A DNA stretch of 17,571 bases from a virus. The stretch lies in UHGV virus genome UHGV-0122130; one strand, written 5' to 3'. This document shows, piece after piece, positions 236 through 17,415 of this stretch; within the stretch, counting starts at the first letter, position 1; each line of letters starts with the position of its first letter. A program made the position numbers and the translations under genes. A model generated the notes under the pieces. It saw only the letters and a program-made list of their open reading frames with translations. It did not search any database and was not told the origin of the DNA.

Positions 236-454
236 TCAAAGAGAGAGCACCACCTGTCCTGATTTCATTGGATGCGGCTGAACCGGATTTGACTCTTTTG
301 GCGTTGCAATCGAACGAACAAAAGTTTCATGGGTAACAAAAGTATGGCTGCAGTTAATGTTCTGGCACTGGTTGTAACGCTCTTTGGTCAATGAAGATAC
401 CTGAAAACTGCTGCGAGTATGAGCGGCACTTCCACACAGTGGGCAAATCATCAT
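236..454 (-). CDS. ogr: Ogr/Delta-family zinc-finger late-gene transcriptional activator
   Basis: ORF 236..487 contains MMICPLCGSAAH...KERYNQCQNINCSHTF with a C-x2-C-x22-C-x4-C motif, closely resembling P2 Ogr (72 aa). Start placed at the internal Met (454) to give about 72 aa. Sits just downstream of gene D as in P2. Confidence 0.85.
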   Translation of the reverse strand: MMICPLCGSAAHTRSSFQVSSLTKERYNQCQNINCSHTFVTHETFVRSIATPKESNPVQPHPMKSGQVVLSL

Positions 455-544
455 TTTTCGAGTTCTCCCCATTTTTGCTAAATTCACAATAATGATACCG
501 CATTATTCCATTTTGAAAACTTAAAAGTTCTCCATTGCGAAGAA

Positions 545-1645: not shown

Positions 1646-2127
1646 GACAGCAGCCCTCCCACCGTTTTACTGATATCACTTAAGGCAGACGTTACCGTGT
1701 CCTGCAGATTATTCAGTTGCGCACTAAGATCACCGAACATATCGGACAGGGATTCATCCACCCGTTTGAGCGACAGAGTGAACTCAATCCGGCGCGGCAT
1801 ACCATCGCGGAAAAACTCCGTTTTAGTCTGATTTAGTCCCTCAATCACATACATGCCGTAAATCGTGCCGCTGCCTTCAATCAGGGGCCATGCTTTCCCC
1901 TGTTCTGCCATCTGTTCCAGTGCCAACAACGACAGCCTGCCACCTGTTATCTCCGGCATAAGAACACCAGAAAGCGTCAGCATGTCGTTGTCCGGTCCCA
2001 GAAACTGCGTGGACGGACGTCGATTTACCCGGCTGTTTGCCGCATGTCGCCAGCTGCGTTGATACTGCAGTTCCTGATACGGCACGGTGCGCAGCATAAA
2101 CACGTACAATCCCAGCACCATCATCAC
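1642..2127 (-). CDS. U: Tail protein U (P2 gpU)
   Basis: 161-aa ORF between the tape measure gene and D; ATGA-type overlaps with both neighbours. Confidence 0.85.
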   Translation of the reverse strand: MMMVLGLYVFMLRTVPYQELQYQRSWRHAANSRVNRRPSTQFLGPDNDMLTLSGVLMPEITGGRLSLLALEQMAEQGKAWPLIEGSGTIYGMYVIEGLNQTKTEFFRDGMPRRIEFTLSLKRVDESLSDMFGDLSAQLNNLQDTVTSALSDISKTVGGLLS

Positions 2128-5100
2128 GCGTCGTATCCCCCCTGATCGCTGTAGTTACTCCTGGCTTTTGCCTTCAGCCTGCGTTCACGTTCATCAAGCT
2201 GGCGGGCCACCTCCCGCGCAATATCCTGCGCACTTTGTCCTGGCTGCGTCTGGATGATGATCTGCGTCGGTGCCTCAATGCTGTAAACGGGCGGCACAGC
2301 GGCTGCGCGACTCACCATCGCTTCTCCACCTTTCGCGGGAAGTGCCAAAGGGTGCAACGGTGGAAGCTCTGCTGGCGCGGCAGCAACGCCCATCATTCCG
2401 GCAACAACGGCAGCCAGTGCAGCTGTATTTCTCCGGCTGGTCACGTTTGCCGGACCGTTGACAATTTCAGGCCCGTTTTCACCGACGATGCCAAACTGCC
2501 CGTGCGGGATATACCCACCGCTGTCATACATCCCCGCAAAGCCATATCCCCATGACGGGAAACCACCCGATGGCATCATCACTTTACCGTCTGCATTCAC
2601 CGTCGCAGGTTGCTGACGCGTCACGCTTTCCGGCAGTTTTGCCTTTGCGGCCTCTTTACTGACAATGCCGAGTTTCTCCAGCAACCAGGAAACGCCGGAT
2701 TTCAGGGAGTCCAGCGGATGCATGACCATATTCAGCCCTTCCGCCAGTGCCTCCCCGAATCGTCGCCCCATTGCCGCTGCGCTCTGCAGTTCGGCAGAGG
2801 TCGACTTAACGGGCGTCAGCAGATCAGTAAACCAGCCCCACAACGCCTGCACTTTGTCGCCAATCCACTGAAACACAGGCTTAAGTGGTTCGAATGCTGC
2901 ACTGATGGGACCTGCCGCCGCTTTGAATCCTTCCACCACGCCACCGAGAAATGCGGTGATGGGTTGCCAGTATTTCCAGACAACCAGCGCTACGCCCGCC
3001 AGTGCAGTAACCACAAGACCTATCGGACTGAGCAGAGCACCTAACAGACCAGATACGGCATACAGGGCAATGCGCAACATCGCCAGCGGGCCGGATGCGA
3101 GCACACGCAGCACCGCGCCTGCGGCAGCCAGCCCACCGCGTAGTGCTGCCAGTGGATTCATAAACATCACAGCAACAGCACGTAAACCGGATAATCCAGA
3201 CCGCAAAAGTGCAACCAGCGCACCTGCTACAGTTTTCAGGACATTCCCCGTCAGTGATGCCGTGCGACGCAAAGATGACAACGGAGCAGTAAGTAAACCC
3301 GCTGCGTTGCCCGATGAAGCAAGCCCGCGTCGCAGCAGTGCCAGTGGTGCGCCAGCCAGCCAGGACAACGCGCTGCTGGTTCGAGTTACTGCTGCCGTAA
3401 CGGAAGGTAACGTTTTGATACCCAGCACAGAGAATCCCAGACGGATCACTGCCAGCGGCCCCAGCACTGCAGCCAGCGCCACCGCTAAGGTGCCGAGGCC
3501 TACGGTAACCGCAGCCACAACAGCCGCTACTTTCATCAGTGTGCCTGTCAGTTCCGGGTTAGCTTCCACCCAGCGGCGCAACGCCCCCGTAATGCTTTTC
3601 ACCGTGTACAGAATATCCATCAGCGGCTGGCGCAGCGTTTCGCCCAGGCTGCTGAAGGTGTTCTGCGCTCCGGTTTTGACCAGCAACCACTGAGCAGAAA
3701 GTGAGTCTTTGTTGATGTCGGATTCTTTCTGCATGGAACCGAGCGCATCATTGCCCGCTGTCAGTTTTAGCTGGCGCTGCAGTTCCGGAAGGTTGTTTGC
3801 CAGTTTCGCCGCGTCATCACCAAACTCTTTACCAAACAACATGGTCATGGCAGACAGACGCTTGTCCTGCGGCAGTGCGTTCACCTTCTCCAGCACACGC
3901 TGAATAGTTCCCATCGCATCCTTCGTCATCTGCTTTTCAATCACTTCAGGATTGAGTTTCAGCAGATTCATCCCTTCAAAGAAACTCTTGCTTTGCATGG
4001 TGGCAATGGACAATTCACGCACCATCGCGTTTGCTGCACTGGCTGCAACCTCCGGCGCAGCGCCCAGTGTCAGAAAGGTGGAACCCAGTGCCGCCGCTTT
4101 ACGATAATCCAGACGGTCAGCCACACCGCCCAGACGTTGCATCACATCAATGATGTCCGCCCCTTTCGACATGGCGTTATCATCCAGATAGTTCAGCGCA
4201 TCGCCGAGCTGTTCAATATTGCGGGTAGGTATTTTGTAGAGCTGGGCGATTTTCCCCAGACTTTCTGACAGTTCATCCGCTGGCAGCTCAAAGGCTGTTG
4301 CCGCCTTTGCTGCCGTACTGGCGAAGGCCAGCAGGTCACGTTTCTGGTCTTCCCAGCTGTCGTCAGGGTTTGCGACGTTCATGCGCGCACCACCTTCAAC
4401 CAGTGCAGCGAAGTCCACCGCACCGTTTTCCATCGGCAACTGTTCGCTGGCAGCCTTGATGGCATCCTGCATTTCATAAAAACGTGCAGTGCGGTTGCCA
4501 TTATCGTCACGCAGACCATTGACCTGCTTTGCCACACCTTTCATGGCATCTTCCATGCTGGTATAGCTTTTTACTGCCGCCATCACTGGCGTCCCCATTG
4601 CCAGCCCTGCAGCCGTGGTGGTGGCTCCGGCTCCTGCGATGCGATCGCGCACCTCCAGCGAACGGGCATAACTGGCACGCGCTGCATTCATCCTGCGCTG
4701 AGCTTCCCCCAGTCGCTTCAACCGCGCCTCCTGTTTCGACAGTTCCTGGTTATAACGTGATGTTTCACGGGCTAAACGGGCAGTTGCTCCCGCATCATCT
4801 TTCGCAGAAATTCCCGCCCGGTACAGTTCTGCACGCACAAGCGCCGTTTGCTTCTGCAAATATTTTTGTTGTTCTTCCAGGCGTTGGACTGCCAGCGTTT
4901 GCCGACCTAAAGCCACAAGGTGCCGTTGTGATGGTTGTTCCATCGACTCCAGCTCAGAGCTAAGCAAATTAGCCTTCTGTCTGGCATAGTTCAGCCTGTC
5001 GCCTAACTTCTTGTTATCGGCCTGCAGCTTGCGAAATTTTTCCAGGCTGTTACCCGCCTGATTGAGTTGCTTTAATGCGTCACGGGAGTTTCTGATTGCG

Positions 5101-5201
5101 CCAGCCAGCTCTTTCGAACTGGCCTGTGCAGCACGGAATGGGCGGGTGAGTTTGTCAACCGCATTAAGAATGACCTGCAGCCGCAGGTTATTATCACTCA
5201 T
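2124..5201 (-). CDS. T: Tail tape measure protein (P2 gpT-like)
   Basis: 1025-aa ORF with a coiled-coil-like Ala/Gln/Leu/Arg-rich N-terminal part and a long Ala/Leu/Gly-rich hydrophobic central region typical of tape measure proteins; lies directly downstream of E/E'. Confidence 0.9.
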   Translation of the reverse strand: MSDNNLRLQVILNAVDKLTRPFRAAQASSKELAGAIRNSRDALKQLNQAGNSLEKFRKLQADNKKLGDRLNYARQKANLLSSELESMEQPSQRHLVALGRQTLAVQRLEEQQKYLQKQTALVRAELYRAGISAKDDAGATARLARETSRYNQELSKQEARLKRLGEAQRRMNAARASYARSLEVRDRIAGAGATTTAAGLAMGTPVMAAVKSYTSMEDAMKGVAKQVNGLRDDNGNRTARFYEMQDAIKAASEQLPMENGAVDFAALVEGGARMNVANPDDSWEDQKRDLLAFASTAAKAATAFELPADELSESLGKIAQLYKIPTRNIEQLGDALNYLDDNAMSKGADIIDVMQRLGGVADRLDYRKAAALGSTFLTLGAAPEVAASAANAMVRELSIATMQSKSFFEGMNLLKLNPEVIEKQMTKDAMGTIQRVLEKVNALPQDKRLSAMTMLFGKEFGDDAAKLANNLPELQRQLKLTAGNDALGSMQKESDINKDSLSAQWLLVKTGAQNTFSSLGETLRQPLMDILYTVKSITGALRRWVEANPELTGTLMKVAAVVAAVTVGLGTLAVALAAVLGPLAVIRLGFSVLGIKTLPSVTAAVTRTSSALSWLAGAPLALLRRGLASSGNAAGLLTAPLSSLRRTASLTGNVLKTVAGALVALLRSGLSGLRAVAVMFMNPLAALRGGLAAAGAVLRVLASGPLAMLRIALYAVSGLLGALLSPIGLVVTALAGVALVVWKYWQPITAFLGGVVEGFKAAAGPISAAFEPLKPVFQWIGDKVQALWGWFTDLLTPVKSTSAELQSAAAMGRRFGEALAEGLNMVMHPLDSLKSGVSWLLEKLGIVSKEAAKAKLPESVTRQQPATVNADGKVMMPSGGFPSWGYGFAGMYDSGGYIPHGQFGIVGENGPEIVNGPANVTSRRNTAALAAVVAGMMGVAAAPAELPPLHPLALPAKGGEAMVSRAAAVPPVYSIEAPTQIIIQTQPGQSAQDIAREVARQLDERERRLKAKARSNYSDQGGYDA

Positions 5202-5630
5202 CGTTGGCCCCGCTTCTCTGAATCGCTTTATACCGCCATTCCAGCACTTCGGTCAGCGGCATAACGTCAGTAACGGATGGCGGCCAGTGAAAAATGGTGG
5301 CGATATCTGCCACCAGATCGTCAACCGTCAGGCTGTCGGTAAACCGGCAAGCACCGACTTCTTCAACAAAAAAGTGACAACCTCAACCGACATGGCAGTG
5401 AGATCTGCCGGGTCCATCTCTGCAATTTCCTGTGCAGTCAGTGCCGGACTGGAGATGCGGGGGATCACGGTCATCATCGCGTTCACATCCATATCCATAA
5501 TGGCCTGCAGGCGTGTACCGCGCAGCGCACCGGACTGCGGTTTACGCAGCACAATTTCGGTGATTTCTGTTTTACCGCGCTTGATGGGGGTATCCAGTTG
5601 AATGGTCTTTTCAGTCTGCTTATCACTCAT
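5194..5630 (-). CDS. E': E+E' tail assembly chaperone, predicted -1 programmed frameshift product
   Basis: Hand translation of the minus strand: after the slippery site T_TTT_TTG (5373..5367) the -1 frame stays open for a further 57 codons (FFVEEVGACRFTDSLTVDDLVADIATIFHWPPSVTDVMPLTEVLEWRYKAIQRSGANDE) to a TGA at 5196..5194, overlapping the T start codon at 5201..5199. Confidence 0.65.
5328..5630 (-). CDS. E: Tail assembly chaperone E (P2 gpE)
   Basis: 100-aa ORF upstream of T, ending ...VTFLLKKSVLAGLPTA; contains the slippery heptamer near its 3' end. Confidence 0.85.
   Translation of the reverse strand: MSDKQTEKTIQLDTPIKRGKTEITEIVLRKPQSGALRGTRLQAIMDMDVNAMMTVIPRISSPALTAQEIAEMDPADLTAMSVEVVTFLLKKSVLAGLPTA
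5367..5373 (-). other. Slippery heptanucleotide TTTTTTG for the E/E' -1 translational frameshift
   Basis: Plus strand reads caaaaaa at 5367..5373, so the minus strand reads T TTT TTG within the codons T-F-L of gpE. Confidence 0.6.
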
Positions 5631-5684
5631 TTTGCTGTCCTGTAAATTGGGTTCTGGCGCGGTATCCCGCGCCGTTCAGATATA

Positions 5685-6200
5685 TCAGAGGCCGAGGGCG
5701 TTGCGGTGCGCTTCCATCAGGTCCATACCGTCCACAATTTCCACCATGTTGATAAGGTCCACTTCATAGAGCACCTCACCATTGATGGTCAGCTTCGCGT
5801 AGCTGTTGGTACTGGTCACTTTGGTGGTGTTGCTTTCGCCCGTCTTCCACTCGCCGGAATCCACTTCTTTGTGACGTCCACGCACCACAAGCTCCACGGC
5901 CTGCACTTCTCCGGTATCGTCACGCTGGATAGAGCCGGTAAAGCGCAACTGGATGCCATCCACCGTGGCTTTGCCCATCTGCTTAAACAGCAGCAGTTCA
6001 GTACCACCAATGGAAAATTCTGTGTCCAGCGCACTGTCATCAAGCCCCAGATCCACATCAACTGCACCAGGCATTCCGCCGCCGCGATACTTCTCATATT
6101 TGCGGGTGAATTTCGGCAGCGTCAGCGACTCTACGATCCCCTGCCAGTTGTTCCCGTCGTTAAACAGGTTCAGATGTTTTAATTTGCGTGGTAAAGCCAT
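5685..6200 (-). CDS. FII: Tail tube protein FII
   Basis: 171-aa ORF immediately downstream of the sheath gene, matching P2 FII in size and position. Confidence 0.88.
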   Translation of the reverse strand: MALPRKLKHLNLFNDGNNWQGIVESLTLPKFTRKYEKYRGGGMPGAVDVDLGLDDSALDTEFSIGGTELLLFKQMGKATVDGIQLRFTGSIQRDDTGEVQAVELVVRGRHKEVDSGEWKTGESNTTKVTSTNSYAKLTINGEVLYEVDLINMVEIVDGMDLMEAHRNALGL

Positions 6201-7457: not shown

Positions 7458-7477
7458 TTGTACCGTTATTCACACAA
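7458..7477 (-). promoter_or_regulatory. Candidate Ogr-dependent late promoter activator site (TTGT-N12-ACAA dyad) upstream of FI
   Basis: ttgtaccgttattcacacaa at 7458..7477, centred about 88 nt upstream of the FI ATG. P2/186-type late promoters carry a TGT-N12-ACA element centred near -55. Confidence 0.45.
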
Positions 7478-7524
7478 AATGACGGTATTTGTCTGCTTGC
7501 AGGGATAATCAAAATAATGCTGAT

Positions 7525-8091
7525 TCAGGGAGATTCATTGCTCTTATTTGCCGGAAATTTTCTATAAATGGTAGAAACGCCTACATCAAAAATCAGTGCA
7601 ATACGCTGTCTTGATTCTCCGGCCTCGAGTAAGCGTCCAATCTGTGCCCACTGTTCGGTGGTCAACTTAGGACGGCGTCCACCTACTCTGCCTTTGGCGC
7701 GAGCTGCAGCAAGCCCCGCCCTGGTACGTTCAACTATCAGTTCGCGTTCCATTTCAGCCAGGGCGCCCATGACATGAAAAAAGAAACGGCCCATTGGGGT
7801 ACTGGTATCAATACTGTCAGTCAGGCTTCGGAAATTCACACCACGCTGGCGCAACTCTTCTATCAGCGTAACAAGATGCCGCATACTGCGCCCCAACCTA
7901 TCCAGCTTCCAGACAACCAGCGTGTCTCCTGCCGATAGTGTCCTGAGCAGTTTTTTCAGCCCCGGTCTGTCGGACTTAGTGCCACTGATTTTGTCCTCAA
8001 AAATCCGCTCACATCCCGCGCAGTTCAGCGCATTACGTTGCAAATCGGTGTTCTGGTCATTTGTTGACACGCGTACATAGCCAATAAGCAT
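7525..8091 (-). CDS. Serine-recombinase DNA invertase (Gin/Pin/Cin/Hin family)
   Basis: MLIGYVRVSTNDQNTDLQ... N-terminus with the catalytic-serine motif, GRFFFHVMGALAEMEREL core and C-terminal helix-turn-helix (RQRIALIFDVGVSTIYRKF); very similar in sequence and length to Mu Gin. The ORF opens at 8097 (MIM...), but the SD-like GGGAG fits the third codon best, so the start is set at 8091. Confidence 0.9.
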   Translation of the reverse strand: MLIGYVRVSTNDQNTDLQRNALNCAGCERIFEDKISGTKSDRPGLKKLLRTLSAGDTLVVWKLDRLGRSMRHLVTLIEELRQRGVNFRSLTDSIDTSTPMGRFFFHVMGALAEMERELIVERTRAGLAAARAKGRVGGRRPKLTTEQWAQIGRLLEAGESRQRIALIFDVGVSTIYRKFPANKSNESP

Positions 8092-8146
8092 GATCATCTC
8101 CCTGAATAAAAATAGGGGATGATGCCAGTTAGCCGTAATCGCTGCA

Positions 8147-8172
8147 TTTTCTTAAACGTTGGTTTGGGAGAA
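8147..8172 (+). repeat. Invertase recombination site (gix/hix-like 12-2-12 site), segment end next to the invertase gene
   Basis: TTTTCTTAAACG-TT-GGTTTGGGAGAA; shares a 15-bp perfect inverted repeat (ttggtttgggagaag, 8159..8173) with 9965..9979. Both half-sites resemble the hix/gix half-site pattern TTnTCnnAAACC. Confidence 0.6.
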
Positions 8173-8616
8173 GGTGCTCCGGCTATTGGAGTTCCGTTCT
8201 TCTGGCCCTCCGCTGCAATGCCAAATACCGTAATCAACAGCTGGTCCGGTATGGTGTTTTTGAAGTTCAACGGAGCGAAATTTTCTGCCACTGATTACCC
8301 TGTGCTGGCGAAAGTGTTTCCGTCGCTGGTATTACCTGACGCACGGGGTGATTTCATTCGTATCTGGGATGATGGGTGCGGGGTGGATAGTGGGCGAGCA
8401 TTATTAAGCTGGCAGGCAGCAACATCTTTATCGCAATTTGGAGGTAATTATCCAGAGGGCTCCGGCCATTCGATTGCTAATCACGATGGAATATCAGCAC
8501 ACGAGCCGGGTTTCTCTCGATACCATTACACCAGTAATTCAGTGGGTGATGGTGTGAATTTTATTGCCGTCAGGCCACGTAACATCGCATTTAACTTTCT
8601 GGTGAGGGCTAAATAA
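8159..8616 (+). CDS. Silent alternative tail-fibre C-terminal cassette (Sv'), promoterless in this orientation
   Basis: ORF 8119..8616 reads ...NVGLGEGAPAIGVPFFWPSAAMP...KFSATDYPVLAKVFPSLVLPDARGDFIRIWDDG, a Mu/P1-type fibre C-terminus. The frame is continuous with the constant part of H across the crossover core. The first 13 codons of the ORF-track ORF (8119..8158) lie outside the segment and are probably not coding. Confidence 0.7.
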
Positions 8617-9206
8617 TGAAACCTGTTTTTGATGAAAATGGGCTGGCTACAGTACCGGGTGATATGCGTTGTTTTTATTATGATGCAGTAACGTATGAAT
8701 ATACGGGTTGGTCTGATGAATATATTAATACTGGTGTAAGTATGCCCGCTTGTTCCACTTATATTGACCCGGGCGAAAACATTTCGGGGAAAGTGGTATT
8801 TACGGGGAAGGGATGGCACCATGAAGAAGACCATCGCCATGAGACTGTTTACTCAACCGAAAATGGCGCTGCCGTTACAGTGGATGATATCGGTGCCATC
8901 AAAGACGGTTATGTCACGCTTTCACCGTTAACGCCATACGATAAATGGGATGGGGAAAAATGGGTGACAGATACTGAGGCACAGCACGGTGCTGCAGTAG
9001 AAGCGGCAGAAACACAGCGCCAGTCGCTGATTAATGCTGCAATGGCGTCCATTAGTCTTATTCAACTGAAATTGCAGGCCGGACGGAAGCTGACGCAAAC
9101 AGAAACCACCCGACTAAACGCCGTGCTGGATTACATTGACGCGGTGACGGCAACAGATACCAGCACCGCGCCGGATGTCATCTGGCCTGAACTGCCGGAG
9201 GCGTAG
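8616..9206 (+). CDS. Alternative tail-fibre assembly protein (U'/Tfa), paired with Sv'
   Basis: 196-aa ORF whose start overlaps the Sv' stop (TAATG); conserved Tfa-like C-terminus ...LDYIDAVTATDTSTAPDVIWPELPEA, similar to that of the minus-strand assembly gene. Confidence 0.75.
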   Translation: MKPVFDENGLATVPGDMRCFYYDAVTYEYTGWSDEYINTGVSMPACSTYIDPGENISGKVVFTGKGWHHEEDHRHETVYSTENGAAVTVDDIGAIKDGYVTLSPLTPYDKWDGEKWVTDTEAQHGAAVEAAETQRQSLINAAMASISLIQLKLQAGRKLTQTETTRLNAVLDYIDAVTATDTSTAPDVIWPELPEA

Positions 9207-9618
9207 GCCATTCAATATCTGGAGCACCGGAAGTATCGACCAGTTCCAGTGCGTCCAGATAATCCAGCCACAAATTATATTGCGCCAGTTCCTCACCTTT
9301 CAGACGACCAATAGCTGCTTTACCAGGCCATTGCTTACTGTTTATGTATGCGTTGGCCTTATTAATCAATTGCTGCTTTTGCAATTCAGCTGCTGCAATC
9401 TGTTCTTCATGTGTTGGTGGTGGAATATCAATCCATGCTGGCATTCCGTCGATGACACCTCTGTATTTTCCTTCTGGTGCTTCCTTCATAAATTCGGCGG
9501 CAACAGTGTCGTCAATTTCGATTCCATCATCGGGCCATTCGCCGGATTCCTGATAAGCGATTTTAAGCTCCACAGGGAAAAACGCATTTTTATCGGCACT
9601 GAAAATATATTTCTGCAT
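9178..9618 (-). CDS. Tail-fibre assembly protein (Tfa, P2 G / Mu U equivalent), currently expressed copy
   Basis: 146-aa ORF immediately downstream of H on the minus strand; C-terminus ...LDYLDALELVDTSGAPDIEWPTPP is paralogous to the U' C-terminus. Confidence 0.8.
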   Translation of the reverse strand: MQKYIFSADKNAFFPVELKIAYQESGEWPDDGIEIDDTVAAEFMKEAPEGKYRGVIDGMPAWIDIPPPTHEEQIAAAELQKQQLINKANAYINSKQWPGKAAIGRLKGEELAQYNLWLDYLDALELVDTSGAPDIEWPTPPAVQAR

Positions 9619-9620
9619 TT

Positions 9621-11027
9621 CTACCGTCCTATCGAAATATAACTGAATCTGTATTGCTGTGAGATATTACTGGTTGCCACACGCCACGCTGAATTACTGA
9701 TATGTTCAAAATTTACAGACAAAACCTGCGGGGCAGGATTCGACGGGTCTGACTGAACGGCATCAGACATAACACTGACTGAAACCATCGGTTGATTAGG
9801 GAATGGTATAGGGAAGTGTCCACTGATAATGCGGGTCGTGTTCCCTGAAAAAGTGCCAAACTGAACAATATATCCACTTGGTAGCCTGAACCATCCCGAG
9901 CCAGAAGCGAATGCTCCCATATCCGGTATCTGATTTTCCCCTGTCCCCACATTCCTTCTTGCCGCTTCTCCCAAACCAAGGTATGTGAGAAGACCAGCTA
10001 CATCCTTTCCACTCAAATTAGTCAGCGTATTGTCCAGCGGTTGTTTACCTGCCAGCGCATTAAGCATTGTCGTGGCAAAGTTCGGGTCATTCCCCAGCGC
10101 TGCCGCCAGTTCGTTCAGTGTATCCAGTGCCGCAGGTGCAGAACCCACCATTGCCGCAATTGCCGATTTCACAAAAGCTGTGGTGGCAATCTGTGTATTG
10201 TTGACCGACTGTGCCGCAGTAGGTGCGGTTGGCGTTCCGGTGAGTGCCGGACTCGACAGCGGCGCTTTCAGTGCCAGCGCATTGTTAATGGTGGTACTGA
10301 ATTTCGGATCATTGTTAATGGCTGCGGCTATTTCTTTCAGCGTGTCCAGCGTGGCTGGCGCACCATTAATAAGAGCCGTCAGAGCCGCCTGAACAAACGC
10401 GGTGGTCGCAATCTGCGTGGTGTTATTCCCTGCGGCTGGCGTTGGCGCTTTGGGTGTCCCGGTAAACGTCGGACTTTCTTTGAGTGCATACTGTGAATGC
10501 GGGTCCGGTGCGGCAAGATGTTTTGCCATCTGATCATCCGCGTACACCTTCAGCTCCAGTGCCTTGTCATCCACATACTTGCGGGTTGCCAGCACTACGG
10601 CAGGGTCGATTTTCAGGGTGATATTGTCCGTGCTGCTGGTAATCAGCACCATGCGCACGGTCTGAGTGCGCCCGCTACCTTCAGCCAGTTGCGGCTTATA
10701 GCTTTCCGGGCAGTTGCCCGCGGCAATCAATGCCCCGGACTCATCAAACAAGCCCACTTCACGTATCCACCAACCGCCCTCGTTTTCAGGGATCACCTGT
10801 TCGGCAATAATCTGGCTGCTGTTCTGCGGGTCGATATAGAGCATATTCAGCGCAGCCCGGCGTTTCTCATTTACCAGTGCGGTCTGCTTTGAGTCTGGCG
10901 TTGGCAATACTCCGCCGCCATCGCCGACCGCCATATGGGTAATTTTTAGCGGCACACCGAGCGCGGCGGCGCTGGCAAGTTTCGCCGCGCCAATATCCGT
11001 CAGCAGGGTATAAAATTTTGTGCTCAT
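9621..11027 (-). CDS. H: Tail fibre protein H (constant part plus currently fused variable C-terminus Sv)
   Basis: 468-aa ORF; N-terminus MSTKFYTLLTDIGAAKLA...MAVGDGGG and internal NNTQIATTAFV...LDTLNELAAALGNDPNFATTM repeats match P2 gpH. The C-terminal 119 aa (from L350) lie inside the invertible segment. Confidence 0.9.
   Translation of the reverse strand: MSTKFYTLLTDIGAAKLASAAALGVPLKITHMAVGDGGGVLPTPDSKQTALVNEKRRAALNMLYIDPQNSSQIIAEQVIPENEGGWWIREVGLFDESGALIAAGNCPESYKPQLAEGSGRTQTVRMVLITSSTDNITLKIDPAVVLATRKYVDDKALELKVYADDQMAKHLAAPDPHSQYALKESPTFTGTPKAPTPAAGNNTTQIATTAFVQAALTALINGAPATLDTLKEIAAAINNDPKFSTTINNALALKAPLSSPALTGTPTAPTAAQSVNNTQIATTAFVKSAIAAMVGSAPAALDTLNELAAALGNDPNFATTMLNALAGKQPLDNTLTNLSGKDVAGLLTYLGLGEAARRNVGTGENQIPDMGAFASGSGWFRLPSGYIVQFGTFSGNTTRIISGHFPIPFPNQPMVSVSVMSDAVQSDPSNPAPQVLSVNFEHISNSAWRVATSNISQQYRFSYISIGR
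9966..9991 (-). repeat. Invertase recombination site (gix/hix-like) inside the H coding sequence, at the constant/variable junction
   Basis: Minus strand reads TTCTCACATACC-TT-GGTTTGGGAGAA with 10/12 internal dyad symmetry; the core TT sits at positions 2-3 of codon L350 of H. Confidence 0.65.
10029..10472 (-). repeat. Diverged tandem duplication (two units of about 74 codons) inside tail-fibre gene H
   Basis: Protein segments around aa 186-259 and 260-333 align (NTTQIATTAFVQAALTALINGAPATLDTLKEIAAAINNDPKF... versus NNTQIATTAFVKSAIAAMVGSAPAALDTLNELAAALGNDPNF...); the nucleotide copies are visibly related. Confidence 0.6.
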
Positions 11028-11629
11028 GGATTCACTCTCATTGTGTCAATAACATGGACCGCCCCGCCTTCATGCGCGGTGCCGCCAGAAATAATTGTTT
11101 CGTTGATATACGGATAGATCGTGATTTCTTCGCCAAGATAGCTGGCGGCCCCCACCCAATGCGGACCGCTGGTCTGCAGATTGATGGACATGCCGATCAT
11201 GTGACGGCTACATGGTTTGGCATCGCTTATCAGCCGCTCAAGTTCCAGATAGGTATCTTCAGTGATGCCCTGGTCCTGCACGCCGATATCCAGGCGAAAC
11301 GTGCCCGGTGTTTCTCCGGTCTGCCACCACTCAATAATGCGGATCAGGAATCCGAACGGTTCCACCACCCGCCGCACGGCACTGGTGGTTCCTTTATGCT
11401 GATGAATATAAAAAGCATCCTTCACTACCTGGCGTTTGACGCTTTCTGTCCAGCCCTCGTCCCAGCGATCCACAGAGAACGCCCAGGCGAGATAAGGCAG
11501 GAAGCTGACCGGACAGGTAGCCGGATTCCACAAGTCACGCAGCGACACCTGCAGATCAGAAATCCCGCTACAGGTTTGCGCCAGTCGGCGCTCCAGTGAA
11601 GTTGAACCCGGTGGCAGCAGACTATTCAT
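11024..11629 (-). CDS. I: Baseplate/tail protein I (P2 gpI)
   Basis: 201-aa ORF with P2 gpI-like motifs (LWNPATCP, LPYLAWAFSVDRWDE, GTFRLDIGV); overlaps the H start by 4 nt. Confidence 0.85.
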   Translation of the reverse strand: MNSLLPPGSTSLERRLAQTCSGISDLQVSLRDLWNPATCPVSFLPYLAWAFSVDRWDEGWTESVKRQVVKDAFYIHQHKGTTSAVRRVVEPFGFLIRIIEWWQTGETPGTFRLDIGVQDQGITEDTYLELERLISDAKPCSRHMIGMSINLQTSGPHWVGAASYLGEEITIYPYINETIISGGTAHEGGAVHVIDTMRVNP

Positions 11630-12530
11630 CCGTTCCTCCGTTGGTTACGCTCCACTGCGTACATGATGCCGCCTGTGTTTTGTTCAGGACCACATCCGCC
11701 AGAGGAGAAGCCAGCTCCACACGCTGCACACCCTCAACATGCAGGGCGGCAAAGATGGCGCTACGGCGAATATCCCGACCAAGACGCGTCTGACTGGCGA
11801 TGTACTTCTGCAGGCTGGCTTTTGCCGCTGCCATTACCGGCTCTGCTTCCGGTCCCGGATAGAGAAAAATGGTGGCTTCCACGCGATACGGGATGATTTC
11901 TGCGCTGCGAACCGTCAGACGGTCAGCCACCGGGCGGACGCTCTCACTGTTCAGAGCTTTTTCCACCACGTCCAGCAGGTCTTTTTCTGCAGTTCCATCG
12001 CCTTCGCGGCTAAGGACAGTCAGCACCACCTCTGCAGGTGCCGGGCTGGTTGCACTGGCATCCGCCACCCGACCGTCGGCGCTTCGGGCATGAAATTCAT
12101 AAGCTGCAGTTGGCCCCGCAACAGAAAGCCCTTCAAAGGCTGCAGGCACACGCAGGCGTAACGCTTCATCGCTTTCCATCACAGCTGCAACGGGCGGCAC
12201 AGCATCATTATCAGCAGGCGTCACCGTCAGGCGTGTCACGTTGTAGTTGGCAGCGAGCTGGTCAAGATCGCCGCCCATCGCGTAAGCCACCATCACCGCC
12301 TGCGCGGCTTCGTTAATGCGCTGGCGCAGAAGCAACTCACGGTAAGCGTTCTCCTGCAACAATTTAGTGACGGGTTCAGATTCCAGTTCCAGCGTGCGGA
12401 TCACGGCTTCCTGCTCATCTTTCGGATGAAGCGCCACAAATTCTGCCTTGCGTTCGGCAAGCAGCGTCTCAAAGTCCGGCACATCCACAATCTGCGGTGC
12501 AGGCAACTGCGAAAGGTCAATCACTGCCAT
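11622..12530 (-). CDS. J: Baseplate assembly protein J (P2 gpJ)
   Basis: ORF 11622..12569; P2 gpJ-like N-terminus MAVIDLSQLPAPQIVD begins at the internal Met (12530). Confidence 0.85.
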   Translation of the reverse strand: MAVIDLSQLPAPQIVDVPDFETLLAERKAEFVALHPKDEQEAVIRTLELESEPVTKLLQENAYRELLLRQRINEAAQAVMVAYAMGGDLDQLAANYNVTRLTVTPADNDAVPPVAAVMESDEALRLRVPAAFEGLSVAGPTAAYEFHARSADGRVADASATSPAPAEVVLTVLSREGDGTAEKDLLDVVEKALNSESVRPVADRLTVRSAEIIPYRVEATIFLYPGPEAEPVMAAAKASLQKYIASQTRLGRDIRRSAIFAALHVEGVQRVELASPLADVVLNKTQAASCTQWSVTNGGTDE

Positions 12531-12876
12531 TCTCTGCTCCTGTTGATACGGAAAGGGACACAGGCACACCGTTATTCCGCCGCCCGGTCAGCTCCACCAC
12601 CATAGAACCGTCAAAGTTGCTGTTGATGGTGATGGAATCCAGCGTCAGCCGTGGCTCCCAGCGACTCAGCGCCACATACACTGCCGACATGACCTGCAGG
12701 CGTAATGCCGGATTTTGTGGCTGATCTATCAGTGCCGACAGTAGGGAACCATATTCCCGACGGGCAATGCGGCTACCCTGCGGCGTCAGCAGAATGTCCC
12801 GCACCGACTGGCGCAGATGGTCAATATCAGTAATGACTTTGCCGCTGGTATTGTTCATCCCGCTATAAAGCGTCAT
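12517..12876 (-). CDS. W: Baseplate protein W (gp25/GPW family)
   Basis: 119-aa ORF between V and J with the expected size and synteny. Confidence 0.85.
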   Translation of the reverse strand: MTLYSGMNNTSGKVITDIDHLRQSVRDILLTPQGSRIARREYGSLLSALIDQPQNPALRLQVMSAVYVALSRWEPRLTLDSITINSNFDGSMVVELTGRRNNGVPVSLSVSTGAENGSD

Positions 12877-13451
12877 ACCGGGCCTCCGGTTGTGTCGCCG
12901 CCTTTCAGGACGCCAGTATGCTGATGTGCATCAACCACAATTCCGTTAGAACTCATTGCACCGCCGCCCTGGGTAACACCACCATTGATCACTACTTCGC
13001 TGTTAATACGCGTGCGGTCAGCCTCCAGCACAAACTCACTGGTTTTCAGGGTGATGTTGTCGGCAGCCTCAATGACCATGGATTTGATGCCCCTGACATA
13101 CCAGCGCCCGGTGGCGGGTTCGTATTCAAACCAGCCACCGTCAGGATGCTCTGTCACACAGGCGTCCGCCGACGTCGAAGGTGGCGCGAACTGATTCGAA
13201 TAGACAGCGGGCAACGCAAAGGCGGTTTCCAGATTGCCTCCCAGACTCAGCAGCACCACCTGCTCACCTTCCGATGGTTTCCACCATGTGCGGGCATTAC
13301 CCGCGCGCAGCGTCAGCCAACTGATCCAGTTAGTTTCAAGCTCGCCTGTTTTCACCCGACAAAGCCAGTTTTCCCGGTCCACTTCGGTGACTACACCTGT
13401 GCGGATCAGATTGGTGATAAGGCGCATGATTTCGGTTAATTGTGCGTTCAT
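12873..13451 (-). CDS. V: Baseplate spike/assembly protein V (P2 gpV)
   Basis: 192-aa ORF; position, size and motifs (RTWWKPSEGEQV, TGGPV C-terminus) match P2 gpV. Confidence 0.85.
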   Translation of the reverse strand: MNAQLTEIMRLITNLIRTGVVTEVDRENWLCRVKTGELETNWISWLTLRAGNARTWWKPSEGEQVVLLSLGGNLETAFALPAVYSNQFAPPSTSADACVTEHPDGGWFEYEPATGRWYVRGIKSMVIEAADNITLKTSEFVLEADRTRINSEVVINGGVTQGGGAMSSNGIVVDAHQHTGVLKGGDTTGGPV

Positions 13452-13496
13452 AGGGAAAGGTTGCCATCAGGGGAAGAAAGGCGGCAGTGCTGCAAC

Positions 13497-13516
13497 TTGT
13501 ATCAGTGCTGATACAA
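13497..13516 (-). promoter_or_regulatory. Candidate late promoter activator site (TTGT-N12-ACAA; 9-bp perfect palindrome arms) upstream of V
   Basis: ttgtatcagtgctgatacaa at 13497..13516, in the short S-V intergenic interval. P2 has a separate late promoter for the V operon. The centre is only about 55 nt from the V ATG, which leaves little leader. Confidence 0.4.
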
Positions 13517-13519
13517 AGA

Positions 13520-13966
13520 TCACCCCGCCAGCCATTGCAGAATCATGTCGCGGGTCATTGCCTCAACATCATCATTTACACCCAGCAGGCGGCGCTCTGC
13601 GTAACGGACCTCCGGTCCTTTGCGACTGACGCGATCACGCAGACCGTAATGGTGAACACGGGCAATACGCTGCACCTTGCCTTCAAACTGTACGCTGGCA
13701 GAGTCGGCGCTGGCGGCAGTTTTCAGGTATTTTGTGGTGCGCAGCTTTGCAAACATCTGACGTTTGATGCGCCCCTTCTTGCTGCGTGCTGTTACCCTGC
13801 GCGGTTCATAACTGCTACCATCTGGATTGCGCTGCATCCTGATATTCTGCTGCTGTGTCCGGCGCAGTTCCTGCGCCAGCTGGCGCATCATTCGGCTTCT
13901 TGCGGCTGGTTCCAGATTCGCCAGTAAAGCACTCAGCCAGTCGTCCACCTTCTGCAGTTCAGCCAC
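13520..13966 (-). CDS. S: Tail completion / virion morphogenesis protein S (P2 gpS)
   Basis: 148-aa ORF with the expected size and synteny between R and V. Confidence 0.85.
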   Translation of the reverse strand: MAELQKVDDWLSALLANLEPAARSRMMRQLAQELRRTQQQNIRMQRNPDGSSYEPRRVTARSKKGRIKRQMFAKLRTTKYLKTAASADSASVQFEGKVQRIARVHHYGLRDRVSRKGPEVRYAERRLLGVNDDVEAMTRDMILQWLAG

Positions 13967-14411
13967 GTTTCACCGTCCACATTTCTTCAGGTTCATCGGG
14001 TTCCGCTACCGCTTCAACGCTCGACACACTGCCGTCAGTGCTGACCAGCACACGCTCCGTCAGCTGCAGGTTCAGGCTGATATCACAGACATCGTTGCGC
14101 AGAATATCCACCTCAAAGGTGAATAGCTTTTCCCGTAACGTCGGGTTATTGATGGCATCAGGCTGGTTATCCCGCAGCCACAGCAAAACCGGGGCCATCA
14201 GCAGATTCTGGTCGCCGCTGAAATCTTCAATCACCGCGTTCAGGGTGTAACGGTACTCCCACGACATGGAGCTGACCCCCGTGGCAACCAGCGAACCGTT
14301 ATCCACAAACAGATGCAGTTTGTCCGGGTTATTGCGGACATAAGGCACCGCTTTATTGAGGGCGTGGCGCAGGGATTGTGGTTTGTTCACTGTTTCGCTC
14401 CTGACACGCAA
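13959..14411 (-). CDS. R: Tail completion protein R (P2 gpR)
   Basis: 150-aa ORF; P2 gpR-like stretches (LHLFVDNGS, RYTLNAVIEDFSGD, LWLRDNQPD). Confidence 0.8.
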   Translation of the reverse strand: MRVRSETVNKPQSLRHALNKAVPYVRNNPDKLHLFVDNGSLVATGVSSMSWEYRYTLNAVIEDFSGDQNLLMAPVLLWLRDNQPDAINNPTLREKLFTFEVDILRNDVCDISLNLQLTERVLVSTDGSVSSVEAVAEPDEPEEMWTVKRG

Positions 14412-14643
14412 TAATCATGTCCACTTTGTCTGCACAGACCGCCCAGGCGGCCTCCGTTTCATCCAGCAACGCGTTCAGATCACCGTTAGTGCGCGGCGCT
14501 GCCTGATCCAGCCGACACGGCGTCACTCGCGGACAACCACTGACGGTAAGCTGCACCTCCGGTGAGCGTCGGACGTTCCCGCAGCCGGATAATGTCAGCA
14601 GGCAAAGGAGTATCAGCCCAGCGGCGTAAATCCTCGTTCTCAC
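14353..14643 (-). CDS. lysC: o-spanin lipoprotein (LysC/Rz1-like), embedded in and extending beyond lysB
   Basis: 96-aa ORF MRTRIYAAGLILLCLLTLSGCG... with a signal peptide and LSGC lipobox, Pro-rich mature part; starts inside lysB in another frame and overlaps the start of R, as in P2. Confidence 0.75.
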   Translation of the reverse strand: MRTRIYAAGLILLCLLTLSGCGNVRRSPEVQLTVSGCPRVTPCRLDQAAPRTNGDLNALLDETEAAWAVCADKVDMIIACQERNSEQTTIPAPRPQ

Positions 14644-14914
14644 GCTTCAGTTCCTCGATCCGGTGTTGTCGTTGTCTCAGCAGCGCGCTGGTCTGTTCTG
14701 CTTCGGCATAGAGTCGCGCCTGCTCCCGGTTATTGGTTTCAGTCAGAATGGACAGGCTGATAAGCTGGCTGTTGCTCTTTGCCAGTGCCTGGCTTTTGCT
14801 CTGCAGCTCGTCTGCCTGCGTGCTAATGGTCTGGCTGGCATCAGCCAGCCGCCACGTCTGCCAGCCCAGCGCCGCCAGTAATAACGCCAGCACAACCAGC
14901 AGCAACCGGTTCAT
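14486..14914 (-). CDS. lysB: i-spanin (LysB/Rz-like)
   Basis: 142-aa ORF with an N-terminal transmembrane segment (LLLVVLALLLAALGW) followed by charged coiled-coil-like sequence. Confidence 0.75.
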   Translation of the reverse strand: MNRLLLVVLALLLAALGWQTWRLADASQTISTQADELQSKSQALAKSNSQLISLSILTETNNREQARLYAEAEQTSALLRQRQHRIEELKRENEDLRRWADTPLPADIIRLRERPTLTGGAAYRQWLSASDAVSAGSGSAAH

Positions 14915-15288
14915 GCTGCTACCTGTTGCGCCATCTGATTACGAGTGATCCAGAAGGCAATAACGGTCAGTAGATAAAAGACCAGGGTAATAGCCCACCC
15001 CGTCCAGGCGAGACTTACAACAATCAGCAATCGCATCACCCAACTGGTAAATACGTTTTCTTTTCGGGTAATTGTCTTCAGCAAAGATGCCCTTAACTCC
15101 TGCCAGAGCGGGCCATTCTTAATTAACGCAGCCAGTGCTACCGGAATTGCCGCCCATGTCAGTAAACAGGCTACCCAAACGCCGGACGCTGCCAGTACCG
15201 GAAAAATCCCCTGCGGATACACCATTGCTGCGATTAACAGCGCCATCCATAACATCAGAAACAGTCCGCTGATTAATTTCTTTTTCAT
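14911..15288 (-). CDS. lysA: LysA-like membrane protein (lysis timing; putative antiholin)
   Basis: ORF 14911..15360 with four predicted transmembrane helices. Start placed at the internal Met (15288), which has AGGGAG about 10 nt upstream and abuts the K stop. Confidence 0.7.
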   Translation of the reverse strand: MKKKLISGLFLMLWMALLIAAMVYPQGIFPVLAASGVWVACLLTWAAIPVALAALIKNGPLWQELRASLLKTITRKENVFTSWVMRLLIVVSLAWTGWAITLVFYLLTVIAFWITRNQMAQQVAA

Positions 15289-15289
15289 T

Positions 15290-15802
15290 TCAGTTTGCTC
15301 CCTGTAAGCACCAGGCCATCTCCCGCGCACGGCGGTTATCCAGCCCCTGATTAAACACACCTTTCACATAAACCCAGCGCGGCAACTGTCGGCACGCATC
15401 CGCCCAGCGCCGCTGATTGAGCAATTTCACCAGCGTGGAACTACAGGCATTGCCCGTCCCCACGTTGAAGGCAAACGACACCGTAGTGTCATACACCTTC
15501 TGTGGTGACTGTTGCTTCACACACCTTTCCAGTGCCCGCTCCACACGCAGCACGTTGGAGATTAGCCCTTCTGCTGCCTGTCGTTCCGTGATTGTTTTGC
15601 CGGGAATGACGCCCGATGTATTACCAATGCCGTCGGTCCAGACACCCGCGCTGCACTGATACGGCTGCAGACGACAGCCTTCGTAATCGGCAATCAGTTT
15701 CAGCCCCTCCACGGAGGTGTGAAGCTGCTGAAACCCCGGCAGCGTGGCAGCAATAGCCAGCACGGCCCCTACAAGGCAGCGTTTAACGATTGATGGATTC
15801 AT
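15290..15802 (-). CDS. K: Endolysin, T4-lysozyme-like muramidase (gpK), possibly SAR type
   Basis: 170-aa ORF with DYEG...GVWTDGIGNT (Glu/Asp/Thr catalytic-triad pattern of phage lysozymes) and a weakly hydrophobic Gly/Ala-rich N-terminus (CLVGAVLAIAATLPG). Confidence 0.85.
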   Translation of the reverse strand: MNPSIVKRCLVGAVLAIAATLPGFQQLHTSVEGLKLIADYEGCRLQPYQCSAGVWTDGIGNTSGVIPGKTITERQAAEGLISNVLRVERALERCVKQQSPQKVYDTTVSFAFNVGTGNACSSTLVKLLNQRRWADACRQLPRWVYVKGVFNQGLDNRRAREMAWCLQGAN

Positions 15803-15998
15803 AGTCCTCCCGCGAGATCTGCCCGTCGCGCAGAAGCTGGTAGGCTTTGTGTTTGTAGTACCAGTTGATAGCCAGCATCAGCACACCGATCATCAGGCCG
15901 CCCAGCGTTGAGGCATCCTTGATGGACAAATCGCCCAGCCAGGCCAGCACGACGGCGATGCAATACGTGATAAAGGCGCTGATTCGCTCAAGCGTCAT
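15783..15998 (-). CDS. Y: Holin (two transmembrane segments; P2 gpY position)
   Basis: 71-aa ORF with two hydrophobic helices and a charged C-terminus, located between X and the endolysin gene. Confidence 0.7.
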   Translation of the reverse strand: MTLERISAFITYCIAVVLAWLGDLSIKDASTLGGLMIGVLMLAINWYYKHKAYQLLRDGQISREDYESINR

Positions 15999-16001
15999 AA
16001 T

Positions 16002-16205
16002 TCAGTCCCATAGCTGGACGGTCTGCACGGTGGTGGTAGTCGGAATGTCCGGCAGCTCCACCTGCAACCCGTGAGGTAAAAAGGGGCCGTATTCGGCAAG
16101 CCCCGGATTTGCCTTCAGTACCTGCTCCGTGACACCCTGCGTGCGCCCGTAATGACGCCAGCAAAGCGCGTCCACCGTGTCATACTGATGCGCACGCACT
16201 TTCAT
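16002..16205 (-). CDS. X: Tail protein X (P2 gpX, LysM-like)
   Basis: 67-aa ORF MKVRAHQYDTVDALCWRHYGRTQGVTEQVLKANPGLAEYGPFLPHGLQVELPD, closely matching P2 gpX in length and sequence. Confidence 0.88.
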   Translation of the reverse strand: MKVRAHQYDTVDALCWRHYGRTQGVTEQVLKANPGLAEYGPFLPHGLQVELPDIPTTTTVQTVQLWD

Positions 16206-16669
16206 CAGATAAGCTCCACTGTGCAGTGCGGCGCATCCTGCACCCGGCTGATGGCCCAGCGGGCATCACGCCACAAATCACCGCTTGCTTCCGCCAGTTC
16301 CTCGCCTCGCTTCACACCGGACGCCGTGGCGTCATAGTCCTGATAACGCTCGTTGAGCATGGCGCGTGCCCAGCAGTAAACCGCGTTGAAATAGTGCTGA
16401 ATGCGCTCACTTTTGCCGTCCAGCTGTTCTGCCGGAACCTCTGCCAGCGAGGCATAGCCCAGCATCTGCTGGCGTCTGCGAAACTCATACAGCTCTGCGT
16501 TGACCTCCGAAATTGCCGACAGCGCAACCTGCTTTAGACGCGGCTGCGTCACCGTGCCGTCAGTGCGCATCACACTGCGAAACTCCGACAGGTCCACATC
16601 AGGCCAGAACGGCGTATTTCTGATGATTTCCGCCTGTTCCGGTGCCTGTTCTGGCGCAACAAACTTCAT
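16205..16669 (-). CDS. L: Head completion/stabilisation protein L (P2 gpL)
   Basis: ORF 16205..16732 with a P2 gpL-like C-terminus (ELWRDARWAISRVQ). Start placed at the internal Met (16669), preceded by AGGAGA about 7 nt upstream; the longer in-frame extension has no visible RBS. Confidence 0.8.
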   Translation of the reverse strand: MKFVAPEQAPEQAEIIRNTPFWPDVDLSEFRSVMRTDGTVTQPRLKQVALSAISEVNAELYEFRRRQQMLGYASLAEVPAEQLDGKSERIQHYFNAVYCWARAMLNERYQDYDATASGVKRGEELAEASGDLWRDARWAISRVQDAPHCTVELI

Positions 16670-16764
16670 GCTGCTTTCTCCTGAAATAAAGGGCGGTGGA
16701 CGGGGTTTTGATGTGGCAGAGCCTTTCGCCACCCCGTGCCGCCCGTGCGCGGGGGCACGTTCTG

Positions 16765-17415
16765 TCAGCGGCTGTCATTGCGCAGTCTGCGCTCCAGCTG
16801 CTGTTTGTCTTTTTTCACGCCACAGCGGGGATCGAGCTGTAACGCATGGTTGAGATGGTTAAGGGCAGAAGCCGGATTGCTTTCACTCAGGACAGCGCCA
16901 ATCGCTTTATGCAGACGCGCCCGTGACTGGTCCGGCATATCCAGACCGTCTGTCAGCTCCAGCGTCTGCAACAACAGATCGGCATCAAAGCCGGTGGCGG
17001 CAAGCATTGCGCTCTGCGCCGCGTCTGCCATTTCCTCTGCCAGCACGGTCTGCACATTGCGGTTACCCAGCGGCATCACCCAGCCATGACGCAGGGCATG
17101 ACGCCCGATCTCCAGCGCCCCGGCATAATCTCCGGCATCAATGCGCCACAGCATCACGTACATCAGCACGTCATCCTGCTGTGCGCCTCCGGCAGTCAGG
17201 ACACCCTCTGCCCAGGCGGCGTACTTCGGCAGCAGCTCCACCTTGATTTCCGCTTTTTTGACCGTGGACTGAACGCCCTTGAGACGGCGGCGGTCTTCCG
17301 CCAGTTGCAGCAGCATCAGGTCATAGCCCGACGCGTGGCGAACGCTGCCGCCCTCGCGGGCGGCCTGTTCAGCCTGAACGCGCAGGCGATGCTGCCGTGC
17401 GGGACTCAGGCTCAT
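16765..17415 (-). CDS. M: Terminase endonuclease (small) subunit M (P2 gpM)
   Basis: 216-aa ORF between N and L; assigned from synteny and size. Confidence 0.8.
   Translation of the reverse strand: MSLSPARQHRLRVQAEQAAREGGSVRHASGYDLMLLQLAEDRRRLKGVQSTVKKAEIKVELLPKYAAWAEGVLTAGGAQQDDVLMYVMLWRIDAGDYAGALEIGRHALRHGWVMPLGNRNVQTVLAEEMADAAQSAMLAATGFDADLLLQTLELTDGLDMPDQSRARLHKAIGAVLSESNPASALNHLNHALQLDPRCGVKKDKQQLERRLRNDSR

Follow-up and report, generated by a model that had tools for sequence, protein, structure and literature searches.

Gene content of the locus

The stretch of DNA analysed here (hereafter the window; 17,571 nt of virus genome UHGV-0122130) contains a tail-fibre gene, H, whose 3' end lies in a segment bounded by two inverted recombination sites, and a neighbouring gene for a serine DNA invertase of the Pin/Cin/Gin/Hin family. 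All coordinates below are those of the window. A first-pass annotation, made from the sequence alone, had described this locus as a Gin-like invertase beside an invertible tail-fibre segment in a P2-like prophage, and it is this description that the present analysis follows up.

The invertase gene occupies 7525..8091 on the minus strand, stop codon included, and encodes 188 amino acids (aa). Its open reading frame (ORF) extends over 7525-8097, and the second ATG, at 8091, is the probable start; it is preceded by a GGAG at a distance of 6 nt, and the alignment with Mu Gin begins at residue 1. The protein has a resolvase catalytic domain (PF00239, E=2e-53) and a C-terminal HTH_7 domain (PF02796, E=1.5e-15), and is in size and domain composition like the enhancer-dependent serine DNA invertases. 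It aligns over its full length with the Mu Gin structure 3UJ3 (E=8e-93) and matches the PHROG DNA invertase group (E=9e-101). Ser9 is present, the catalytic motif GYVRVSTNDQ is intact, as is KLDRLGRS with its DRLGR motif, and both motifs are identical in Gin, Cin and PinE. The protein is identical (100%) to the invertase of Escherichia coli NRZ14408 and 99.5% identical to that of Klebsiella phage KP12. Identity to PinE of the cryptic prophage e14, Cin of P1 and Gin of Mu is 83.5%, 77.1% and 73.9%, respectively. This comparison with Gin, Pin and Cin, which the first-pass annotation had proposed, keeps the enzyme in the family to which it had been assigned as "very similar to Mu Gin", but moves its closest characterised relative to the Pin of e14 with its P segment.

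The constant part of gene H spans 9979..11027 on the minus strand and encodes 354 aa common to both forms of the fibre, with a Phage_tail_fib N-terminal domain (E=5e-64). In the present orientation H continues in frame into Sv (9621..9978, minus strand, stop codon included), which supplies the last 114 aa of the 468-aa H ORF, differs from the alternative tip Sv', and matches Gp53-like_C (E=1.7e-8) and a PHROG tail fibre / virion structural protein. Next comes U (9178..9618, minus strand, 146 aa; Caudo_TAP E=1.7e-34, PHROG E=5e-63), the tail-fibre assembly chaperone that is paired with Sv and expressed in the window's orientation. On the plus strand lie Sv' (8161..8616), the silent alternative C-terminus of H, with 147 aa after the constant part and no start codon of its own in this reading, and U' (8616..9206, 196 aa; Caudo_TAP E=3e-28, PHROG tail fibre assembly E=2e-80), the chaperone paired with Sv'. 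Sv' matches a PHROG tail fibre (E=7.5e-49), and its identity to the side-tail-fibre tips in two lambdoid phages, mEp043 and mEp213, is 79%. Both chaperones belong to PF02413 (Caudo_TAP), and each stands directly downstream of its tip, inside the segment. Sv, U, U' and Sv' are the four coding units of the 1,819 bp between the sites, and all ORFs of the segment are intact. When 8159-9979 was reverse complemented in silico, H stayed in frame, with 468 aa (Sv) in one orientation and 501 aa (Sv') in the other; the two products have the first 354 aa in common, ending in GLGE, and then 114 aa or 147 aa.

The invertase ORF is exactly flanked by a perfect inverted repeat of 12 nt (ATTCAGGGAGAT / ATCTCCCTGAAT, at 7523-7534 and 8096-8107), with one arm over the ribosome-binding site and the other over the last codons and the stop. 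We estimate that chance alone would give about 0.6 pairs of this kind in 4.5 kb, and the repeat may mean nothing; its position is curious for a gene in an insertion hotspot.

Recombination sites and putative enhancer

The recombination site beside the invertase gene lies at 8147..8172 (26 bp; central dinucleotide 8159-8160), and the second one lies inside gene H at 9966..9991 (26 bp; central dinucleotide 9978-9979), where its inner half-site encodes the conserved GLGE junction. A repeat finder reported the two as inverted arms of 27 nt (8147-8173 and 9965-9991) with 81% complementarity. Written as 26 bp, the invertase-side site is TTTTCTTAAACG-TT-GGTTTGGGAGAA, and the site in H, in reverse complement, is TTCTCACATACC-TT-GGTTTGGGAGAA; the recombination-site motif of the window is AAACCWWGGTTTGGGAGAA. 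The sites have a 12-2-12 layout and inverted orientation, with central TT and AA on the plus strand. These are the same dinucleotide, and the requirement for inversion is therefore satisfied. Allowing at most three mismatches, the site-like pattern has three matches, all inside the two sites, where 0.03 are expected, and none of 200 shuffles reached three. Of the 26 positions of the invertase-side site, one differs in e14 and none in NRZ14408; e14 and the phages 500465-2 and vB_EcoM-606R2 all share the inner half-site GGTTTGGGAGAA. The segment of approximately 1.8 kb between inverted gix/hix-like sites that had been described earlier, with two fibre C-termini (Sv fused to H, Sv' silent) and two assembly genes, is thus present in every part, and its sites are of the e14 type.

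A third site, which would make this a multiple-inversion system as in one prophage of enteropathogenic E. coli (EPEC), was considered and rejected, the pattern with at most three mismatches finding two sites only. A looser scan gave a weak third match at 8612-8637 (AATAATGAAACCTGTTTTTGATGAAA), on the junction of the Sv' stop and the U' start, and this was rejected for want of the core GG and the outer TTC. The 8612-8637 sequence also occurs in NRZ14408 and in phage 500465-2, probably through coding conservation.

An enhancer-like element lies inside the invertase gene at 8007..8069 (nt 23-85 of the gene) and consists of two 15-bp matches (8055-8069 and 8007-8021) to KNNYRNNWNNYRNNM, which we take to be the degenerate Fis consensus. 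The matches are 48 bp apart, and the distance from the crossover point to the centre of the nearer one is about 98 bp. In the P1 record the Cin enhancer is annotated at nt 19-90 of cin, and it aligns with the pair in the window. The pair is present, as sequence, in Mu, P1 and e14 too, and the first 120 nt of the invertase gene have 88% per-column conservation among the window, Mu gin, P1 cin, e14 pinE and NRZ14408. The enhancer of Hin is 65 bp long, with a Fis site at either end, and lies about 100 bp from hix (PMC3798978). The predicted enhancer of the window would likewise be expected to bind Fis and to make inversion Fis-dependent.

Inversion in related elements

Two independent complete assemblies exist for E. 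coli NRZ14408 (NZ_CP158426 and NZ_LT599825), the strain with the identical invertase and identical sites. In the 6,717 bp that were compared, the two assemblies have identical flanks (2,274 and 2,636 bp) around a middle part that is exactly reverse complemented, with breakpoints inside the 15 bp common to the two sites. The flipped assembly, LT599825, has an intact 501-aa H with the Sv' tip.

A scan for exact 40-mers in contigs that represent one genome per species gave no match to the window. Closer relatives of the window were found through the exact 468-aa H protein, which is present on 11 public contigs. In one contig (L009), 13.4 kb align with the window at 99.93% identity; another (L010, from draft genome GCA_025548075.1) has this identity to window positions 8159-17027. 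The end of L010 runs 87 bp past the 15 bp shared by the sites and into the reverse complement of the H constant part, forming a recombinant junction; the tail matches window 9965-10066, read in the opposite direction, at 100% identity, with the change of partner immediately after the central AA. Since the two sites share 15 bp only, a contig could end in this way only if reads of a flipped copy went into it, and the junction comes close to the test that had been proposed earlier, namely reads supporting both orientations.

Both orientations are also found more widely. The 3.7-kb region was matched in the orientation of the window by 24 of 5,426 complete E. coli genomes and in the in-silico flipped form by 26 (coverage cut-off of at least 80% of the region). 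In phage 500465-2 the segment recurs at 91% identity, but in flipped orientation with respect to that phage's H and invertase genes. In the P2-like prophages of EPEC E2348/69, inversion has been demonstrated by sequencing and by polymerase chain reaction (PMC4272514). The findings that the first-pass annotation had said would speak against an inversion system are the reverse of those made: the motif around the catalytic serine is undamaged, the 8159-8616 ORF does encode a tail-fibre C-terminus, and flipped forms are present in siblings.

E. coli ERP001 (NZ_CP063214.1) carries two copies of the module (4984918-4988634 and 20391-24103), about 26 kb apart across the origin of the record and in opposite orientations, possibly in adjacent P2-like prophages.

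For annotation, the fibre gene is to be given two products, and the "partial" ORF at 8119-8616 is to be read as a functional silent cassette and not as a pseudogene. In the NRZ14408 records, RefSeq labels the silent Sv' cassette as an "integrase, incomplete" pseudogene (2256-2717 in L001; 3639-4106 and 4755-5144 in L002), and in the flipped assembly the annotation splits H into two pseudogene pieces although the 501-aa ORF is intact. Other records name the Sv' cassette "phage tail protein, incomplete". Such pseudogene labels are an annotation artefact of invertible fibre genes.

Proposed mechanism and alternative explanations

With the anatomy, the in-frame alternatives, the family of each part and the inversion in siblings all observed, we read the locus with high confidence as a functional Pin/Gin/Cin-type switch that inverts a tail-fibre segment between two states and lies among the late genes of a P2-like (Peduoviridae) prophage. 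Dimers of the 188-aa invertase would bind both 26-bp sites (8147-8172 and 9966-9991), and host Fis, on the enhancer in the 5' end of the invertase gene (about 8007-8069), would promote assembly of the invertasome. All four strands would be cleaved at the central TT/AA dinucleotide, and a 180-degree rotation of subunits followed by religation would leave the 1,819 bp inverted, swapping the fibre tip together with its downstream chaperone gene. Because one site is inside H, the constant 354 aa would be joined to Sv (114 aa) and accompanied by U, as in the window, or after a flip to Sv' (147 aa) with U'. By analogy with Mu and P1, flipping would occur mainly in the lysogen, and the induced lysate would then be mixed, a lysogen population giving rise to two kinds of virion with differing receptor-binding tips. 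If lysates do hold two virion types of different receptor specificity, this bears on host-range prediction, phage therapy and typing. Assemblies of such strains may also break or differ at this locus.

Several points weigh against this reading or parts of it. Inversion is demonstrated in sibling elements and not in the window copy itself. A sigma-70 promoter scan of the minus strand gave no promoter-like site for the invertase gene. The Fis-pair pattern is by itself not significant (3 matches vs 1.2 expected), and the enhancer assignment rests on a position homologous to that annotated in P1. The window takes in late genes only, from the small-terminase gene M to ogr, with the inducibility of the prophage beyond its scope. 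Recognition of different receptors by the two tips, and with it a change of host range, would follow from what is known of Mu and P1, and the rate of flipping is likewise something that we infer.

The outcome of the promoter scan, and the imperfect outer half-sites (81% complementarity overall), would also fit a frozen relic, in which the module is intact and no longer flips in this strain, for example through an unexpressed invertase or a decaying prophage, with the fibre fixed as H-Sv. This we consider very improbable. NRZ14408, whose two assemblies differ by a flip, has exactly the same invertase protein and the same two sites, a recombinant junction is present in a 99.93% identical prophage, the segment ORFs are all intact, and the outer half-sites of Mu and e14 are imperfect as well. 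Nor is the locus likely to any meaningful degree to be something other than an inversion system, with a transposon-type resolvase beside an inverted repeat that arose by chance. Gamma-delta and Tn3 resolvases do match the protein, but at E=1e-28 to 1e-34 only, and the match to Gin is far better (E=8e-93), with 74-84% identity to Gin, Cin and Pin. The 12-2-12 sites are more than chance would give (none of 200 shuffles had as many matches), H stays in frame with either tip, and the inversion in siblings is exact. The resolvase explanation is already refuted.

A role at the level of the host is unlikely. In this alternative the invertase acts in trans on similar sites of other prophages in the same genome, or the alternative products alter a host phenotype such as phage adsorption, besides or instead of host-range switching. 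Cross-reaction with e14 is plausible, given its nearly identical sites and the 83.5% identity between PinE and the invertase. Fin, the invertase of the P2-like prophage Fels-2, was reportedly found by Kutsukake in 2006 to be able to substitute for Hin. Inversions by PinQ and PinR in cryptic prophages are reported to block T2 adsorption (PMC12529663; bioRxiv 10.1101/2025.03.28.646004). Against these points, no host function is indicated in the window, where head, lysis and tail genes form a complete late operon around the module. There is a small chance that the invertase may act in trans on the sites of e14, Rac or Qin-type remnants, such that one P2-like prophage would set several invertible loci; if true, this would have effects on host phenotypes such as resistance to phage adsorption.

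Comparison with known invertible systems

As a two-state tail-fibre switch, the module has the architecture that had been proposed for it, namely that of the Mu G, P1 C and e14 P segments, with one site inside the fibre gene, two opposed tips, and a chaperone for each tip. The closest of these is e14 of E. coli K-12, where PinE acts on the P segment (stfP-tfaP / tfaE-stfE'). The layout is alike, with a constant part, a tip, a chaperone, an inverted chaperone and tip, and the 5' end of the invertase gene at a site, and the segment is about equal in size to the 1.82 kb of the window. U' is 62% identical to TfaE, U is 57% identical to TfaP, and Sv' is 39% identical to the StfE C-terminus; Sv had no counterpart among the e14 proteins at E<1e-3. 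At the DNA level the match is limited to the part of the segment at 8925-9333 (88%). Unlike the window, which holds a complete P2-type late region, e14 is defective, has another backbone, and has stfE and jayE as pseudogenes.

Mu (Gin; G segment with S/U and S'/U') has the same gene order and orientations, with one constant N-terminus and two tips, each with its own chaperone, and its site together with the 5' part of the invertase gene aligns with the window at 81% column identity. It differs from the window in being a transposable phage, in its G segment of about 3 kb, and in a central dinucleotide that is GA/TC and not TT/AA. In a blastp comparison of the tips and chaperones with S, U, S' and U' of Mu and with H and G of canonical P2, nothing was found at E<1e-3. 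Because of this, the P2 H-G pair is equated with one arm of the segment by position only. A 40% tblastn match labelled "Escherichia phage P2" was rejected as a P2 match, being to NC_041848 and not to canonical P2 (NC_001895). P1 (Cin; C segment) is like the window in its alternative Sv/Sv' tips, and its annotated enhancer aligns with the predicted one of the window. Its C segment is about 4.2 kb (32225-36480 in the record), and it is the 3' end of cin that abuts cixL, whereas in the window, Mu and e14 the 5' end of the invertase gene abuts a site. Judged by these sequence comparisons, the module is Pin-type in detail and Gin-type in layout.

Hin of Salmonella (hix; fljBA) belongs to the same recombinase subfamily, and it too has 26-bp sites and a Fis enhancer inside the recombinase gene. 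The central dinucleotide of hix is AA/TT. In that system a promoter is flipped, in contrast to the coding ends flipped here. The comparison with Hin covered its 52-aa DNA-binding domain only (1HCR, E=7e-9).

The same backbone, with the module in the same slot between H and FI, is found in the P2-like prophages of EPEC E2348/69 and in phages KP12, Kp48xx, Cartapus, 500465-1 and 500465-2. With the 3.7-kb query, Cartapus and Kp4845-2 gave matches over 52-58% of its length at 96-97% identity; what Cartapus, KP12 and the Kp48xx phages have in common with the window at 96-97% is the invertase and the H constant part, not the whole segment. The combination of tips varies among P2-like members, NRZ14408 having another Sv tip. 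One EPEC prophage has three inverted repeats and four variants (PMC4272514), in comparison with the two sites of the window. An invertase with inverted neighbouring genes is reported to be frequent in the Z/fun hotspot of P2-like phages (bioRxiv 10.1101/2024.10.15.618418).

The segment acts as a cassette. Its matches in 500465-2 and vB_EcoM-606R2 run from site to site (8154/8156 to 9982/9991) at 90.5-91.3% identity, and the flanks in these two phages are much more distant from the window or unrelated to it. The latter phage (L005) is a 42.7-kb unclassified myovirus with another baseplate and another fibre constant part, and it carries the segment at 90.5% identity. Its invertase coding sequence is annotated as 315 nt (5396-5710) and may be truncated, in which case the segment would be locked there.

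The system is already known, both as a class (Gin, Cin, Pin, Hin) and in its presence and inversion in P2-like prophages, and the identical invertase is present in complete E. coli genomes. The view that this is a known class of system agrees with the reports for P2-like prophages (PMC4272514; bioRxiv 10.1101/2024.10.15.618418). No new question is opened by the window, as the same invertase, sites and architecture are present in many sequenced P2-like phages of E. coli and Klebsiella.

P2-like surroundings

The window is a P2-like late region, all on the minus strand, with a Pfam order that matches the P2 record: small terminase M, L, X, holin, lysozyme, lysis genes, R, S, V, W, J, I, H, the segment, the invertase, FI, FII, E, T, U, D and Ogr. 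The P2 backbone that had been recognised earlier is evident in this late gene order and strand, and relatives of the window are classified in Peduoviridae. According to its record, P2 has between G and FI a terminator, the fun(Z) gene encoded on the other strand, and both the activator site and the promoter for the F operon. In the window the invertase gene fills the interval that corresponds to P2 fun(Z), between H with the segment and FI, and the segment replaces the tip of H plus gene G. The placement of the module at P2 Z/fun made by the first-pass annotation therefore holds for the invertase gene, and the segment has a different place. The view of the module as grafted cargo fits its evolutionary history, but the arrangement is fixed in a common lineage of P2-like phages of E. 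coli and Klebsiella.

A TGT-N12-ACA dyad, the pattern of which we take to be that of P2 late promoters, lies at 7459..7476 on the minus strand upstream of the sheath gene FI (ATG at 7382). It is likely an Ogr-dependent late promoter at the edge of the invertase slot. Its distance from the FI start is about 85 bp, close to the approximately 83 bp of the P2 activator site, and the F-operon promoter thus appears to have been kept.

Extra cargo beside the invertase was considered and rejected, as the additional genes of relatives (P-loop NTPase, SIR2) sit past V and not in the slot between H and FI. This defence-like cargo lies beyond the baseplate gene V on the opposite strand, and encodes a P-loop NTPase fold protein in APEC (avian pathogenic E. 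coli) IMT5155 and a SIR2 family protein in isolate AHB2 (L012 9608-10688 and L013 9667-10717). The gap between V and S in the window, 68 bp (13451-13520), is the same cargo hotspot and is empty here.

The tape-measure gene (2124-5201) encodes 1,025 aa, as it also does in relatives, vs 815 aa (2,448 nt) in P2, and the tail may be longer than that of P2. Past the ogr-like gene (236-487, minus strand), positions 100-160 at the window's edge contain a hairpin followed by a T run (CCCATCAACC...GGTTGATGGGTTTTTT), which could be a terminator, or could be near the prophage end or attachment site.

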